DNA of 64,000 nt from assembly GCA_963745235.1 (NCBI GenBank), contig CAVUXE010000052.1:1-64000 (forward strand), in the 5' to 3' direction. The notes under the pieces were generated by a model that made no database searches, was not told where the DNA came from, and saw only the letters and a list, made by a program, of their open reading frames with translations. Position 1 is the stretch's first letter. Each line of letters starts with the position of its first letter. Shown here one piece after another: positions 26,679-38,295 of the stretch. The position numbers were made by a program, and so were the translations under genes. The stretch is from an uncultured Spirochaetota bacterium. GTDB lineage: Bacteria; Spirochaetota; Spirochaetia; SZUA-6; Fen-1364.

Positions 26679-27767
26679 TCAGCCTCCCCTTCCCTGCGTC
26701 AACGCCTCTCGGATGATCTTGGCCCGCGTGTAGTCGATGAGCTTTGAATCCACCGCCTCCGCCTGGGTCTGGAGCACCCGCTGAATGTGAGATTTCTGCG
26801 AGAGAAAGAGGAGCGCCGTGATGGTGGGGGCATCGAGCGCCGTTATCAGCCCCAGCGCAATCCCGAGGCGGAGGGCGGACAGGGATTCAATGGCCTCTCG
26901 ATGCGAGATGTACCGGCAGTAGGAGAGAAGCCCCCACGCCCGGAAAACCCTGTCTTCGATGTCGACACGCCTCTTGTCCATCAACTCCTCTCTCGTCCTG
27001 TTCTCGTAGCCTGCAAGCTGGACCGCAATGCGGCCCAGGTTTCCGATGATCTCTTTCTCCGCCAGCCCGATGGTGATCTCATTTGCAATGATATACATGT
27101 CACCCAGGGATTCCATGCTTTCGCTGAAGAATCCACGGATGGAGAGCCCCAGCTGCGCTGAGGCCTTGATGGCCCGCTTGATGAGCCCGCTCATTGTCAG
27201 CGCCGGCAGGTGGAGCATCATGGACGCCTTGAGTCCCGTGCCGAGGTTCGTGATCGCCGTATTGAGGTATCCCCACTCGGCGGACACAGCAAAGGCGAGC
27301 GGCTCCTCCAGTCCGGAGTCAATGGCCTCGAGCCTTCCCAGAAGCGACTCGAGGCATGCCCCCGACCGCATGCCCACCAGGCGGAGATGGTCGTCTTCCC
27401 CGATTATCCCTGCCACGGTCTCATCCGTGCTGAGCGCTACCGCTCTCTGCTTTTCCAGCGAGTATCCCTGGGAGATGAGGTTTCTCTCGAAGAGGATCCG
27501 TCTTTCAAGCGCGGAGAGATCGTCCATGTAGATTATCGCAAAATCTTCCGCGTTCGGCAATCGGCGAAACGCGGCAATGATCCGGTCACGGTATTCCTTC
27601 TCCACCTCCGCGGAGCACCTGCCCGGAAACGGGTACGCGCCGAGGTTCCGTGCCAGGCGCACGCGGCTGGAGATGACCACCCCGCCCGGTGATTCCGTGG
27701 AGACCCGTGCCTCAGTCTCCGCGCGCATCCAGCCTTTCATGTCAGAGAGACCGGTAAAGTCAAACAC
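26679..27767 (-). CDS. mcsB: McsB-like ATP:guanido phosphotransferase (protein-arginine kinase family), degenerate active site
   Basis: [37 protein letters not shown]; lies between mcsA and clpC. Confidence 0.88.
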
Positions 27768-33621: not shown

Positions 33622-35158
33622 CTACCCGGCGGTCCTGGTGGACACCGTGACGTAATGGATGATCCTGAACAGCATCCACGTGAAAAGCGAAGCGCTCACC
33701 ACCGTGCCGACGAGGTAACCCCCGTAGAACAGCGTGCCCCTGACCTGGGCGCTGGTGTACTGCGGGCCGCTGCCAAGCTCCCTCGCCTGCACGGCGGAGT
33801 CCAGCGCAAATGCGTAGCAGAAGAGGGGAACGGGAAGCGAGAGCGCGAACCACGTAAAGGCGTCATAGAAGTCGTTCCGCGCCTTCTTCTGGACCGCGTC
33901 CCGGGAAACCGTGTCAGGCTGCAGGACGAGGGAAAGCTCCGCCGGGGAGCTTTCGCTGATGGAGAAAGGCATGTCGTAGAAGCCCTGCGCCGTGATGTCC
34001 ACGCGCGTCCGGTCGAACGGCGTTTCGAGGGACAGCGGGGTCTTGCCCTTCCAGACGGATTCCACGTATACGTCCGCGCCGGATGGCGTGGATGAGATGA
34101 CGACAGTTCCCGTCTTCTCTTTCTCCAGGGTTACGGAGACTGAAGCTTCCTCTGCGTCCCCCAGCGACATCGTCTGGGTCAGATCGCGATATCCCGGCGC
34201 AGACACCTTGATGTCGAGGGTCCCCGGCGTCACGTACAGGAGCGGAGTCCGCCCGGTCGCCACCAGCTTCCCGCCGACGAACAGGGAGCCCCCCGGCGGA
34301 TCCGGGGTGAAGGAAATGGCGGCCCAGGGCTTCCCGAGGAACAGTCCGGTGAGCTGCCTGCCCGCCGGGGGCACGGACTGGTACACCTCGTCCCTCCGCG
34401 CCGCATCCCGGTAGCTCACGACCACGGAGTTGCTGGCCGCATCGTATGCCCACACGTCGAGCAGCACGTAGCCCTCCACGTCGCGGACCATGCCGCCGAC
34501 AAGGAGGTCGATCCCCTGGCGCTCGCAGAACACGGAGGCCGGGATGGAAAGCGCATCGAACAGCTTGCCCACCCCGCTTCCCTCTTTGACCGAAAGGGGC
34601 TTTTGCTCCGCCACCTTGATGAGGGTGAGGTCCATGGACTTGAGAAAGTCTCTTCGCGCAAGCGCAAGGGTGATTTTCGCGTCCACGGCCGAGGTGGGTG
34701 GAATTGTGGCGTCAATGGCGTTGAGGAGAAGCGCGTCACGCTCCTTGTACAGGGCAGTGACGTTCTGGTCCACCGTGGTCAGCTCGTGAGCTATCAGGGC
34801 ATGGCGCACCCTGTCACGGTCCGTCGCGGGCAGCGAATGAACGGAGATCCCCGCCAGCTGGTTTTTCAGCATCAGTGGGATGCTGTACGTGAGGTACTGG
34901 TCCTCGGGGGGCACCCGTTCCGCATTGAGGGCGCAGAACCCGACCACCCACGTGTCCTTCTTGTCCACCGGGACCGACAGATCGGGCTTTCCGGTGCCTG
35001 ACTGCGGCGGCCGGCGACGGCGGAGTGGTGGACCCGGCGGCCGTGGGCGGTGGCCGTGGGGACCCGGGAGCTTGCGATGCGCCGGGGAGCGTCACCTGCG
35101 CCGCGAGGGGCAGGAGAGGAAGGCACAGGAGCAGCAGGACGGCCTCAGCGCTTTTCAT
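33622..35158 (-). CDS. PEGA-domain membrane/exported protein; frameshift near 35000
   Basis: Signal peptide MKSAEAVLLLL..., Pro/Ala/Thr linker, two PEGA units (FTPDPPG..GRTP; ISSTPSGADVY..GKTP), C-terminal TMs. Confidence 0.8.
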
Positions 35159-35526
35159 CACACGATGTTGAGCGCCTTCTTGAGGGCCGAGACCACTCTC
35201 TGAGGCTGAAAGGGCTTGACGATGAAATCTTTCGCGCCCATCTCGATTGCCTGGATGATCAGGCGCTGCTGGCCGATGGCGGAGCACATGATGATGCGGG
35301 CCGCGGGGTCGACCTCGCGGATCTTCTTGAGCGCGGTGAGACCGTCCATTCCCGGCATGGTGATGTCCATCAGCACCACGTCCGGCCTCGTGTCGAGGTA
35401 CCGGGCAATCGCCTCGTCTCCATTGGAGGCTTCCCCTACCACGCGGAAGCCGGACTTTTCCAGGATGTCGCGGAGGACGATCTTGATGAAAGCAAGGTCG
35501 TCAACTATCAGTACGTTGACCGCCAT
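35158..35526 (-). CDS. cheY: Single-domain CheY-type response regulator
   Basis: IVDD, MDITMP.MDG, CSAIGQ, DFIVKPF. Confidence 0.9.
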   Translation of the reverse strand: MAVNVLIVDDLAFIKIVLRDILEKSGFRVVGEASNGDEAIARYLDTRPDVVLMDITMPGMDGLTALKKIREVDPAARIIMCSAIGQQRLIIQAIEMGAKDFIVKPFQPQRVVSALKKALNIV

Positions 35527-36629
35527 CTTTCTTCCCGAGCCATTGCTGCTTCAGGTACGCTTCGATGAAGGGATCGATCTCCCCGTCCATGACGGCCTGG
35601 ATGTTGCCGACCTCCTGCTTGGTGCGGTGGTCCTTGACCAGCGTATAGGGCTGGAAGGTGTACGATCGGATCTGATTGCCCCAGGAGATGTCCTTCTTCT
35701 CCTGCGCCAGCTTCTCTTTCTCCTTGTCCTGCTCTTCCTTGTAGTGCTCGTACAGGCGGGAGCGAAGGACCTTCATCGCGAACGCCTTGTTCTTGTACTG
35801 GCTGCGCTCGTTCTGGCACTGGACGACGATCCCGGTGGGGAGGTGCGTTATGCGCACCGCTGAGTCCGTCTTGTTCACGTGCTGACCGCCGGCGCCTCCC
35901 GCGCGATACGTATCTATGCGCAGGTCCTCAGGACGGATGTCCACCTCGATGGTGTCATCCAGGACCGGGAAGCAGAAGACGGAAGCAAAGGAGGTATGGC
36001 GCCGCGCGTTGGAGTCGAAGGGGGAAATGCGCACGAGCCTGTGGATGCCGGTTTCCGACTTGAGATAGCCGTATGCGTAGTCCCCGTTCACCTGCAGGGT
36101 GACGCTCTTGATTCCCCCTTCCCCCTCCAGGATGTCGATGATGTCCGCCGTGTACCCGCGCCGCTCCGACCACCGCGTGTACATGCGCAGAAGCATGGCC
36201 GCCCAGTCGTTCGCTTCGTTCCCGCCGGCCCCTGAATGGATGGTGAGAAAGGCAGACGAGGCATCCGCCTCTTCCCCCAGGAGCTCGAGAACCTTCAGGT
36301 CGGAGTACTTCTTCGACAGGGTGTCCCAGGTGCGGCGCAGGTCCTCCTCAAGGGACTCGTCTTTCTCCTCCAGGGCCATGCGCCACAGCCCGGCGAGGTC
36401 CTCATACTCGGAACGCAGCTTCTCCCATGGCTCGTACCTTCCCTTCAGCTCTTTCAGCCGGGACAACGCCTTGCCGGCCTGTTCCTTGTCCAGCCAGAAA
36501 TCGGGCTGCGCGGTTTGCTTCTCGATCTCCGCGATCTGCCTCTTCAGAGCTTCCGGGTCAAAGACCCCTCCAGGTTTCCTGGATCTGCTCTCCGAGGGAT
36601 GTGAGTTTCTGTTCGAGCTCTCCTAGCAC
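35501..36629 (-). CDS. prfB: Peptide chain release factor 2 with programmed +1 frameshift
   Basis: GTG start at 36629; internal SD GGAGGGG then CTT TGA C at 36563-36557; SPF and GGQ motifs downstream. Confidence 0.97.
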
Positions 36630-36639
36630 GGGTGCCCCT

Positions 36640-36912
36640 TCATGTCTTGACGATCAGCCTTCGCCACTTCTTTTCCTTGAGGATGGTGATCGCCAGTGTT
36701 CCCTCCACCGGATACTGGTAGAGGCGTATGCTGTCATACGAGTCCGCAATGCCGTCAAGATCCCTTTTCAGCCGACGCAGCGCGGTCTCCGAAACCGTGG
36801 TGCTCTCAAAGGCGTCCTTCAGGACCTTCTTGAAGCCGTACTGGCCCAGGATATCATGGCCGGACCTGCGATGGTCATCGTTCGCGAACTCGCAGGCTAC
36901 AGCGACAAACAT
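36640..36912 (-). CDS. cas2: Stand-alone Cas2-like (ferredoxin-fold) protein, 90 aa
   Basis: MFVAVACEF-helix-QYGFKKVLKDAFES-helix-DSIRLYQY matches the Cas2 pattern (YG..vQ.SvFE; DsiRiY). Confidence 0.72.
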   Translation of the reverse strand: MFVAVACEFANDDHRRSGHDILGQYGFKKVLKDAFESTTVSETALRRLKRDLDGIADSYDSIRLYQYPVEGTLAITILKEKKWRRLIVKT

Positions 36913-36920
36913 ATCGCTTG

Positions 36921-36949
36921 AGTGTATGAGTTTGCCCGGCATCTGTCAA
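36921..36949 (-). promoter_or_regulatory. Near-consensus sigma70 promoter of the cas2-prfB operon (leaderless type)
   Basis: TTGACA(36949-36944)-17 nt-TACACT(36926-36921)-8 nt-ATG. Confidence 0.7.
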
Positions 36950-37041
36950 ATGGAGAACCCGTCCCGTCCTGTCCCGTTCGGAAACCGATTGCACTGGACA
37001 ATGGGTTGGAATCTCACAACAATAGAGGTTGTGGAGGTATC

Positions 37042-38295
37042 ATGACGCGGGGACGCGGCCGCGCGGCCGTGATTGCGCTCTTTTTTCTTTCATCCGTCCT
37101 CGTTTTTTCTCTGGATGAAGAGGAATTGCCGTTTCCGTTTGTCTCTCTGCTCAAGGCGGAGGTGGCTGGTTTCCAGATCAAGCTCAGCTGGAGAGACGCT
37201 CCGGAAACCGTGACGAGGTACCTCGTCTACCGGTACACGGAGGAGTTGACGGCGGAGAACCTCGCAATGGCCCAGATGATCGGCCAGGTCGCCCCGGGCG
37301 TGCAGTTCTTCATCGATACTCCGCCTGATGAGAAAGCGTACTTCTACTCGGTCCTCGCCCAGGATTCCGGGGGCAAGATGTTCTCCACTCTCATCCCGTT
37401 TCGCAACAAGACCCTCGCCGGAGTGGCCGTCACCACGCCAGCCACCGAAGAGCAGGCAGCCGCGCGGATCAGCGGCATCCATGCGGCACCCATTCCCGGC
37501 AGTGACGGAATAGAGGTCACATTCCAATCCTCGAACCCGGGCAGGGACCTGCTTCTCTTCCGAAGCACGGCCCCGATCATGATCGCGGAAGATCTCCTGC
37601 GCTCCGCCTCGGCAACGCAGCTGGACGCGGGGACGACTCAAACCGCTGTCCCTGTGCTTCCCGGTGTCGACTACTGGTTCACCGTGGTGGACGCCGGCCT
37701 GTACAAGCTGGGCAGAGTTCCCCTTGCTCGGGGAACCAACACGACCCTGGATCCGGTTCAGATTCCCGTGGGAAACGGCAGCGCTTCCCTCCCTCCAATG
37801 CCGCCCCGGCGACCTCTTCCCCTGCCCTCCCTGGAGATCACCTACGGAATACAGACCGGACGGCAGCTGCCCGGAGTTTCCTTCCCCGGACTGCCTCCCG
37901 AGCGGTCAATCTCCGCGGCAACCCAGAAGGCGTTGTCGATCCTCCTCGCGGCAGCTCCCCGTCCCCTTCAGAAGGAAATGGTCCGCACCGTGCTGCCTTC
38001 CGAAGCCACGCCTTCTCCCGACAGCGAGGAGGCCCTTCTGCAGGCCATCGTCAAGGGCCCTTTCATGAGCGGCGACGTCCCGTCCGCGGAGGGCGAGCTC
38101 CTGGACTTCCTTTCCCTGCGGCGCGCCGCGGACGTGCAGGCCCGCGCCCACTACTACCTCGGCCAGGCCTATTTCTTTGACAAGCGCCCGCGGGAGGCGC
38201 TCCTGGAGTTCCTCCTTGCAGAAGACCCCTACTACCATGAAGTGGATCAGTGGAAGGACGCGTGCTTCCAGCAGCTGGAGAAGGAAGACGACTAG
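37042..38295 (+). CDS. Exported hypothetical protein: beta-rich (FN3-like) N-terminal domains, Pro-rich linker, C-terminal TPR
   Basis: SD GGAGG before ATG at 37042; signal peptide; AHYYLGQAYF TPR. Confidence 0.7.
   Translation: MTRGRGRAAVIALFFLSSVLVFSLDEEELPFPFVSLLKAEVAGFQIKLSWRDAPETVTRYLVYRYTEELTAENLAMAQMIGQVAPGVQFFIDTPPDEKAYFYSVLAQDSGGKMFSTLIPFRNKTLAGVAVTTPATEEQAAARISGIHAAPIPGSDGIEVTFQSSNPGRDLLLFRSTAPIMIAEDLLRSASATQLDAGTTQTAVPVLPGVDYWFTVVDAGLYKLGRVPLARGTNTTLDPVQIPVGNGSASLPPMPPRRPLPLPSLEITYGIQTGRQLPGVSFPGLPPERSISAATQKALSILLAAAPRPLQKEMVRTVLPSEATPSPDSEEALLQAIVKGPFMSGDVPSAEGELLDFLSLRRAADVQARAHYYLGQAYFFDKRPREALLEFLLAEDPYYHEVDQWKDACFQQLEKEDD

Follow-up and report, generated by a model that had tools for sequence, protein, structure and literature searches.

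The 64-kb window analyzed here is the whole stretch of DNA under study (positions 1 to 64,000 of contig CAVUXE010000052.1 from an uncultured Spirochaetota bacterium), and it carries on its minus strand a gene for a Cas2-like protein of 90 amino acids (aa) that lies directly ahead of prfB, the gene for release factor 2 (RF2). In the overall explanation that we favor, and hold to be probable with some reserve, the gene belongs to a CRISPR-independent clade of the Cas2/VapD superfamily, is the first cistron of a prfB transcription unit and encodes a dimer that acts on nucleic acid. The elements of the putative unit are listed below in window coordinates.

36640..36912, minus strand: Cas2-like coding sequence (CDS), start ATG 36912, stop TGA 36642-36640, 90 aa and stop
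36921..36949, minus strand: putative sigma-70-type promoter of the cas2-like/prfB unit, -35 TTGACA 36949-36944, 17-nt spacer, -10 TACACT 36926-36921
36630..36639, minus strand: spacer AGGGGCACCC, 10 nt, containing a Shine-Dalgarno (SD)-like AGGGG that serves the prfB GTG start
35501..36629, minus strand: prfB (RF2), frame 0 from GTG 36629 to TGA 36560-36558, main frame 36559-35501

A Cas2-like protein outside CRISPR loci

The Cas2-like gene is real as an open reading frame (ORF). The longest frame at the locus, 36640..36942 on the minus strand, gives 100 aa counted from its first ATG. This longer version was dropped because ATG 36942 sits in the promoter spacer and relatives of the protein begin with MFV; the relatives are also mostly 90 aa long, and the start was therefore placed at ATG 36912. 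Reading the sequence ahead of ATG 36912 directly, we found no SD motif. Position 36949, at which a first-pass annotation of this DNA had ended the element, opens the -35 hexamer and lies outside the CDS. Among longer proteins only two fusions (185-189 aa) were seen; their cluster includes 104-aa forms, and they were set aside as probably miscalled starts, the no-fusion outcome of this search being weak evidence.

Among the PADLOC models, Cas2_IIIa matched the window protein at E 1.3e-6 (residues 1-82) and Cas2 at E 4.1e-6, and the PADLOC Cas2 models matched 28/28 aligned family members (this alignment and its RF2 counterpart, 28 sequences each, were drawn from the 59 loci of class Spirochaetia described below). 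Pfam family PF09827 matched 15/27 relatives at E<=1, the best at E 3.4e-10, and in genome searches it gave the prfB-linked copies 23-42 bits against a cut-off of 23.8. The 27 sequences of this test, which also served for structure prediction, were hand-picked for length and spread from 133 and 43 matches. When the family profile was compared with PDB, the seven best matches were Cas2 chains (E 0.001-0.015), and a language-model atlas grouped the protein with Cas2 clusters at 0.90-0.92. The AlphaFold2 model built from the 27 sequences had a predicted local distance difference test score (pLDDT) of 96.7 and a predicted template modeling score (pTM) of 0.86, with a predicted strand-helix-strand-strand-helix-strand topology followed by a C-terminal hairpin. 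Its best Foldseek matches were Cas2 structures (3exc at 4.6e-4, 9p1d_B and 1zpw), with VapD at rank 46; in VIA, ranks 1-36 went without exception to Cas2 or to the Cas2 domain of Cas2/3 (Z 8.8-11.2), VapD followed at rank 38 (Z 8.5), and the match to 4qdl_E (E. coli Cas2) spanned the whole model, residues 1-90. The structural comparison with Cas2 and VapD that had been suggested at first pass therefore came out on the side of Cas2.

Residue counts and the tree described below cover 57 of the 59 loci; L019 and L028 were left out for odd length or a non-ATG start. The residue that closes strand 1, position 8, is acidic in 57/57 members (Asp in 37, Glu in 20), and its equivalence to the Cas2 Asp was taken from the strand-1 position and the motif pattern rather than from residue-level superposition. 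E36, K49, D53, D60, R63, Q66, P68 and W83 are invariant in all 57, and the basic K-K-W-R-R stretch comes close to invariance. The window protein has Glu at residue 8 and reads LKD at the Q.S position, as had been pointed out earlier; the Glu turns out to be no peculiarity within the family, and the Q of Q.S is the family consensus, replaced in the genus of the window only. We concluded that the protein, judged by its profile matches and predicted fold, is a diverged single-domain member of the Cas2/VapD superfamily.

The first-pass annotation had seen no cas1 or array near the gene, and the same was found on a larger scale. The 64-kb window contains no CRISPR-like or tandem array and no Rfam family, and the assembly to which it belongs (5.85 Mb in 104 contigs, 85.74% complete) yielded no Cas1, no further PF09827 match and, in a k-mer scan, no CRISPR-like array. 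The sole k-mer match, C9:27481-27860, was rejected as a 75-nt coding tandem repeat (25-aa unit, rich in Pro, Ala, Arg and Glu). Among 92 genomes of the order, the Cas2-like gene is present in 63 (26/27 genera), Cas1 in 29 and both in 8; the 55/63 carriers without Cas1 confirm the expected presence of the gene in cas1-negative Spirochaetota. The sister family f9 (50 genomes) has both genes in 29 genomes, the Cas2-like gene only in 8, Cas1 only in 5 and neither in 8. By the counts in the order and in f9, the Cas2-like gene and Cas1 thus occur independently, each being found with and without the other. An anti-correlation is suggested within the order, where family f2 has Cas1 in 19/24 genomes and the Cas2-like gene in 1/24; it is absent in f9 and was dismissed as a phylogenetic artefact. 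Family f2 (genera g5 and g6) is very G+C-rich, and its genomes have up to 7 Cas1 matches each.

Genomes with both genes possess a separate, Cas1-adjacent Cas2 that PF09827 scores at 46-92 bits, well apart from the 23-42 bits of the prfB-linked copies, and the distance from the Cas2-like gene to Cas1 exceeds 60 kb in 7/7 complete genomes compared. In a maximum-likelihood tree of 92 proteins, 57 prfB-linked and 10 solo copies split from 25 Cas1-adjacent Cas2 proteins, among them those of the same order, with a Shimodaira-Hasegawa-like approximate likelihood ratio test (SH-aLRT) value of 98; the tree, unrooted and obtained by a quick search over 99 columns, shows one clade and says nothing on the direction of descent. 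The phylogenetic check against CRISPR-linked Cas2 thus gave a separate clade, and the idea of a domesticated non-CRISPR Cas2 has gained from the decoupling from cas1 and arrays as well as from the vertical retention and purifying selection described below. The family is very probably a non-CRISPR paralogue of Cas2.

Fixed position upstream of prfB

In class Spirochaetia prfB is a constant neighbor of the gene. It follows directly downstream on the same strand in 29/29 other loci of the order, in 29/29 loci from other orders of the class, and in 78/80 loci of a species-genome scan, among them every one of the 76 that offer 700 nt or more of room; in the remaining two the downstream sequence is too short to show prfB. 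The 80 scan loci are the best 80 of 418 relatives and overlap with the genomes of the other locus set (L001-L060), and the three synteny sets overlap in genomes. The distance from the Cas2-like stop to prfB ranges from ∼10 to >300 nt, and the stop codon is TGA, TAA or TAG.

The prfB start in the window, GTG 36629, lies 10 nt past the Cas2-like stop. The gene has the programmed +1 frameshift of RF2, AGG GGT CTT TGA C with an SD-like AGGGG upstream (CTT TGA C at 36563-36557, minus strand), and its product matches the Pfam domains PCRF (1.1e-55) and RF-1 (3.2e-46). An in-frame CTTTGA is present in prfB at 55/59 related loci; for comparison, an excerpt of PMC12421855 puts the share of Spirochaetota prfB genes that have the frameshift at 42% (106 genes). 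A complex between the Cas2-like protein and RF2, predicted from the 28-locus alignments, scored 0.00 in two runs made without control runs and counts neither for nor against binding.

Promoter abutting the start codon

The claim that the gene has its own near-consensus promoter was upheld. TTGACA-17-TACACT matches the consensus at 10/12 positions and its -10 end lies 8 nt from the ATG; the region 36400-37300 holds 3 promoter-like sites against a mean of 0.2 in shuffled sequence. Across the class, at G+C contents of 30-69%, 55/59 loci have a promoter of at least 9/12 matches that ends 5-11 nt 5' of the start codon, mostly in the form TTGACA-17-TAnnnT, and an SD-like motif precedes the Cas2-like start in only 3/59. 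As a control, the same promoter test on all ATGs of these loci, true starts included, was positive for 111/5051.

Five species of genus g34 (L194-L198), in sister family f9, have no Cas2-like ORF. In these genomes TTGACA-17-TATTCT is kept directly 5' of prfB, which has an ordinary leader and SD behind it, and a profile search of the DNA upstream of prfB in the five species detected no remnant of the Cas2-like gene. The promoter is therefore the prfB promoter, and the ORF can be cleanly lost while promoter and prfB stay. In L194 a 13-codon remnant ORF begins just 3' of the -10, and the losses look like clean deletions. Because the near-consensus promoter ends only 5-11 nt upstream, the Cas2-like mRNA probably starts at the AUG or a few bases from it. 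The gene appears, with moderate confidence from sequence alone, to be a leaderless or near-leaderless first cistron, and the conserved promoter-abutting start makes it a candidate for a conserved leaderless mRNA in spirochaetes.

Contigs from peat metatranscriptomes (four runs of one study, 99-100% identity) cover 36639-36868 and 36646-36845, and two more, 36516-36766 and 36561-36709 (99-100% identity), bridge the junction of the Cas2-like gene and prfB; the farthest 5' reach of any RNA-library contig is 36868. They lend weak support to transcription of the gene and to a joint transcript with prfB. What speaks against a firmer reading is that these contigs are assembled and give neither a 5' end, a strand nor a single transcript, and that DNA carry-over is possible. 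Taken with the gene arrangement, co-transcription of the Cas2-like gene and prfB is likely.

Conservation, copy number and selection

Carriers in the order have one copy in 61 genomes and two adjacent broken pieces in 2. The split copies (G070:C27:61444-61711 and G047:C14:89163-89427) show a frame change, and one of them a TAG; they are pseudogenes or assembly errors. A whole-library search for the family returned only 43 clusters at 50% identity, and of 599 candidates in the species-genome scan 418 were relatives, the 80 best of which are all labelled Spirochaetota or unclassified. Among named matches the clade is seen only in Spirochaetota. Stand-alone Cas2-annotated proteins in treponemes had been mentioned at first pass, and cultured carriers do include Gracilinema caldarium, Treponema brennaborense and Treponema sp. 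OMZ 840, whose copies are annotated as Cas2 or hypothetical.

The pairwise Nei-Gojobori ratio of nonsynonymous to synonymous substitution rates (dN/dS), computed on 26 of 30 order loci (90-aa copies, L028 excluded), had a median of 0.067 and a range of 0.015-0.352, based on the 129/325 pairs with dS<2; the dN/dS check called for earlier was thus answered by a low value. We concluded that the family is under strong purifying selection and is inherited vertically as a single-copy chromosomal gene.

Flanking genes

Two further features adjoin the Cas2-like gene and prfB.

35158..35526, minus strand: CheY-like single receiver (Response_reg 4.7e-32), overlapping the prfB end by 26 nt
37042..38295, plus strand: divergent 417-aa gene, signal-like N-terminus and TPR-like C-terminus, 0 Pfam families

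A divergent homologue of the 417-aa gene stands upstream of the Cas2-like gene at 75/80 loci, and a CheY-like gene lies 3' of prfB in most related loci (45/80 within the flanks covered). The same-strand run reads, by Pfam, cas2-like, prfB, CheY-like, PEGA, FtsY (SRP54), repeat protein, MacB_PCD/FtsX permease, ABC ATPase and FtsX permease. This is the order given at first pass (cas2-prfB-cheY-PEGA-ftsY-repeat-lolC/E-lolD-lolC/E); the accompanying statement that all gaps are 10 nt or less does not stand, for the junctions are 10 nt, a 26-nt overlap, 189 nt (cheY to PEGA), 9 nt, 1 nt and a 4-nt overlap. Since the cheY-PEGA gap is 189 nt long and the PEGA start is conserved among relatives, the run may be divided into two transcription units, and the gap (34969-35157) may be an internal promoter region. 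An ORF in this gap with a signal-peptide-like start (34814..35287, minus strand) was discarded, as the stretch is not conserved and relatives share the PEGA start; it is an alternative frame whose start shares an ATGA with the cheY stop. Just past the LolCDE-like genes, 26679-27767 (minus strand) encodes an ATP:guanido phosphotransferase domain protein (McsB-like).

Discussion

In the explanation proposed here, the Cas2-like gene of class Spirochaetia would open the prfB transcription unit as its first cistron, read from a sigma-70 promoter that abuts its start codon. One transcript would continue into prfB, for which an SD of its own would lie within 10 nt after the Cas2-like stop, and the Cas2-like protein would be synthesized along with RF2. 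Analogy to Cas2 and VapD would make the protein most likely a homodimer that binds nucleic acid, with the basic C-terminal hairpin and the acidic site as contacting parts, and it might cleave nucleic acid in a metal-dependent manner via the retained acidic site; dimer, substrate and catalysis all follow the same analogy. RNA would be a more likely substrate than DNA because of the operon and of the interferase role argued for Cas2 and VapD. An RNA-directed role tied to translation is a tentative proposal that we would not call likely. A non-CRISPR job of some kind is probable, because the gene is kept single-copy before prfB and mostly in genomes without CRISPR machinery.

Several findings weigh against this explanation. 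Although the family as a whole is recognizable as Cas2-like, the window protein itself has no Pfam match at E<=10 and obtains 16.3 bits from TIGR01573 against a cut-off of 24.5; of the earlier description as a Cas2-pattern protein, the 90-aa length, the PADLOC and PDB profile matches and the predicted fold stand, while the individual sequence stays below the Pfam and TIGR01573 cut-offs. The gene is found in only 1/24 genomes of family f2 and 14/24 genomes of genus g34, is missing from 13/50 genomes of sister family f9 and occurs in none of several other families of the phylum sample. It is not universal and is dispensable in some lineages; together with the five species that lost the ORF, the f2 and f9 counts weaken the core role first suggested for it. 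Synteny with prfB, seen at every class Spirochaetia locus examined with room, does not extend to 10/10 copies examined from other classes, which have no prfB within about 2.5 kb, no abutting promoter and an SD-like motif. The linkage is not intrinsic to the whole Cas2-like family. These solo copies (L061-L070, 24-42% G+C) have varied neighbors; three loci are divergent from a ∼690-aa TPR protein and two are followed by a ∼630-aa membrane protein. The 5/5 f2 genomes without the gene that retain the prfB CTTTGA, together with 5/5 such g34 genomes, leave no correlation, and a tie between the gene and the frameshift was abandoned. Most genomes of the order have ∼3 RF-1-domain genes, carriers and non-carriers alike, and complementarity with ArfB was dropped on this count.

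Small RF2-dependent rescue factors such as ArfA and BrfA exist, and the Cas2-like protein may be imagined as another one: an interferase or adaptor of the Cas2/VapD type whose site of action is the stalled or terminating ribosome, with A-site mRNA cleavage, RF2-dependent rescue or quality control as examples of what it might do there. We consider this unlikely, even though it would explain the lock to prfB, whose linkage is invariant in class Spirochaetia, and is consistent with the kept acidic residue of strand 1 and the conserved KKWRR. Excerpts of PMC3506569 and PMC6452270 likewise propose Cas2 and VapD as interferases on ribosome-associated mRNA. The proposal leans on gene order alone; solo copies in other classes are not beside prfB, prfB and its frameshift are unchanged where the gene has been lost, and there is no complementary pattern with the third RF-1-domain (ArfB-like) gene. 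In its fullest form, a Cas2-derived housekeeping factor that works with RF2 on the ribosome, cleaves or holds mRNA and is co-expressed from one leaderless transcript, it is similarly doubtful. If true, it would place a non-CRISPR, non-toxin Cas2 in translation and would make the long-held idea of a ribosome-dependent Cas2/VapD interferase testable in cultivable treponemes.

A Cas2-like binder or nuclease of double-stranded DNA (dsDNA), with a chromosomal role like that of BPSL1038 and a prfB position that is a historical accident of promoter sharing, is another candidate, which we regard as rather improbable. The model matches the whole of E. coli Cas2 (4qdl_E, residues 1-90), whose solved complexes hold DNA; several Cas2 proteins, by their PDB titles, and BPSL1038, in the abstract of PMC10491678, are reported as dsDNA nucleases; and the solo copies without prfB retain the same conserved residues. 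Against an accidental position, the fixed operon place across a class of 30-69% G+C argues for selected co-expression, and no DNA-metabolism neighbor is conserved.

Lower still we place a role in cis, in which a leaderless upstream cistron would set or couple the translation and transcription of prfB and the activity of the protein would be secondary. The promoter that abuts the start codon in 55/59 loci and the prfB SD placed in the 10-nt spacer right behind the stop in the window's genus would suit such an arrangement. A merely cis-acting ORF, however, would not be expected to retain 8 invariant residues, a folded domain and a dN/dS of 0.067, and the prfB spacer (∼10 to >300 nt) and stop codon vary, solo copies persist elsewhere in the phylum, and species without the ORF appear to express prfB via the same promoter with an ordinary leader. 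It is hardly credible that the gene is a true adaptation Cas2, a remnant of a lost locus or the partner of a distant Cas1: the database name ‘CRISPR-associated protein Cas2’ and the Cas1 of 29/37 carriers in f9 point that way, and this is largely refuted already by the 55/63 order carriers and own assembly without Cas1 (the latter also without an array), the adjacent canonical Cas2 of Cas1 genomes with the Cas2-like gene >60 kb away in 7/7, the separate clade and the single-copy vertical conservation. Equally remote is a toxin like VapD that belongs to a toxin-antitoxin or mobile module, for which the shared fold (Z 8.5) speaks, since no small partner gene is conserved beside it (the divergent 417-aa gene and prfB flank it), the gene is one copy per genome in a fixed chromosomal place with low dN/dS, and Cas2 chains outrank VapD throughout Foldseek and VIA.

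Returning to the CRISPR-independent clade ahead of prfB, its Cas2 fold and database name were already known, and BPSL1038 is a precedent for non-CRISPR Cas2-like proteins. Apparently new are a single-copy Cas2 clade kept across the phylum and its fixation before prfB in class Spirochaetia, where the gene is probably leaderless. No published description of the family or of the prfB linkage was found; solo cas2 genes of this kind may appear in the supplementary tables of CRISPR classifications. Cas2 commonly counts as a hallmark of CRISPR adaptation. Here a whole clade with its fold has long persisted under strong purifying selection, in genomes that have CRISPR and in others that lack it, at a fixed place before the gene of an essential translation factor. 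Labels of ‘CRISPR-associated Cas2’ on these genes lead to overcounted CRISPR components in spirochaetes. To our knowledge there is no agreed role for the nuclease site of Cas2, and the clade is a natural setting in which to ask how the Cas2 fold works by itself. It also bears on the question whether Cas2 arose from a cellular or toxin-like RNase. The clade might be the cellular form that gave rise to Cas2, or else an exapted Cas2.

Comparison with known systems

The closest known counterpart is CRISPR Cas2 (PF09827/TIGR01573), the structural subunit of the Cas1-Cas2 integrase, in whose dimers the strand-1 acidic residue is a metal ligand. The Cas2-like protein resembles it in size (∼90 aa), ferredoxin-like core and C-terminal hairpin, in the acidic residue that ends strand 1 and in the G-x-x-V-Q, F-E and D-x-x-R-x-Y motifs. 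It differs in the lack of cas1, other cas genes or an array nearby or in most carriers, in its single-copy place fixed before prfB and its separate clade, in its own invariant Q66, P68 and W83 with KKWRR, and, for the window protein, in scores below the curated Pfam and TIGR01573 cut-offs. ArfA and BrfA offer a possible analogy only, as small proteins functionally tied to RF2; their fold is unrelated and largely unstructured, and they have no homology with the Cas2-like protein.

BPSL1038 of Burkholderia pseudomallei is described in the abstract of PMC10491678 as a member of a non-CRISPR ‘Cas2/VapD nuclease sub-family’. The likeness, by that description only, lies in the Cas2 fold, a lineage without CRISPR and a kept catalytic acidic residue equivalent to that of Cas2; BPSL1038 belongs to another phylum, has a D11(X20)SST motif and an extra C-terminal helix, and its abstract (PMC10491678) does not mention linkage to prfB. 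Its absence among the listed Foldseek and VIA matches is not evidence of difference. As a structural relative, the VapD toxin (Haemophilus influenzae VapD/VapX) comes after every Cas2 chain, and unlike VapD the Cas2-like gene has no antitoxin partner and is not mobile or patchy at short range. VapD nevertheless shares superfamily and fold with the Cas2-like protein (Z 8.5) and, like Cas2, has been proposed as an RNase in excerpts of PMC3506569 and PMC6452270.

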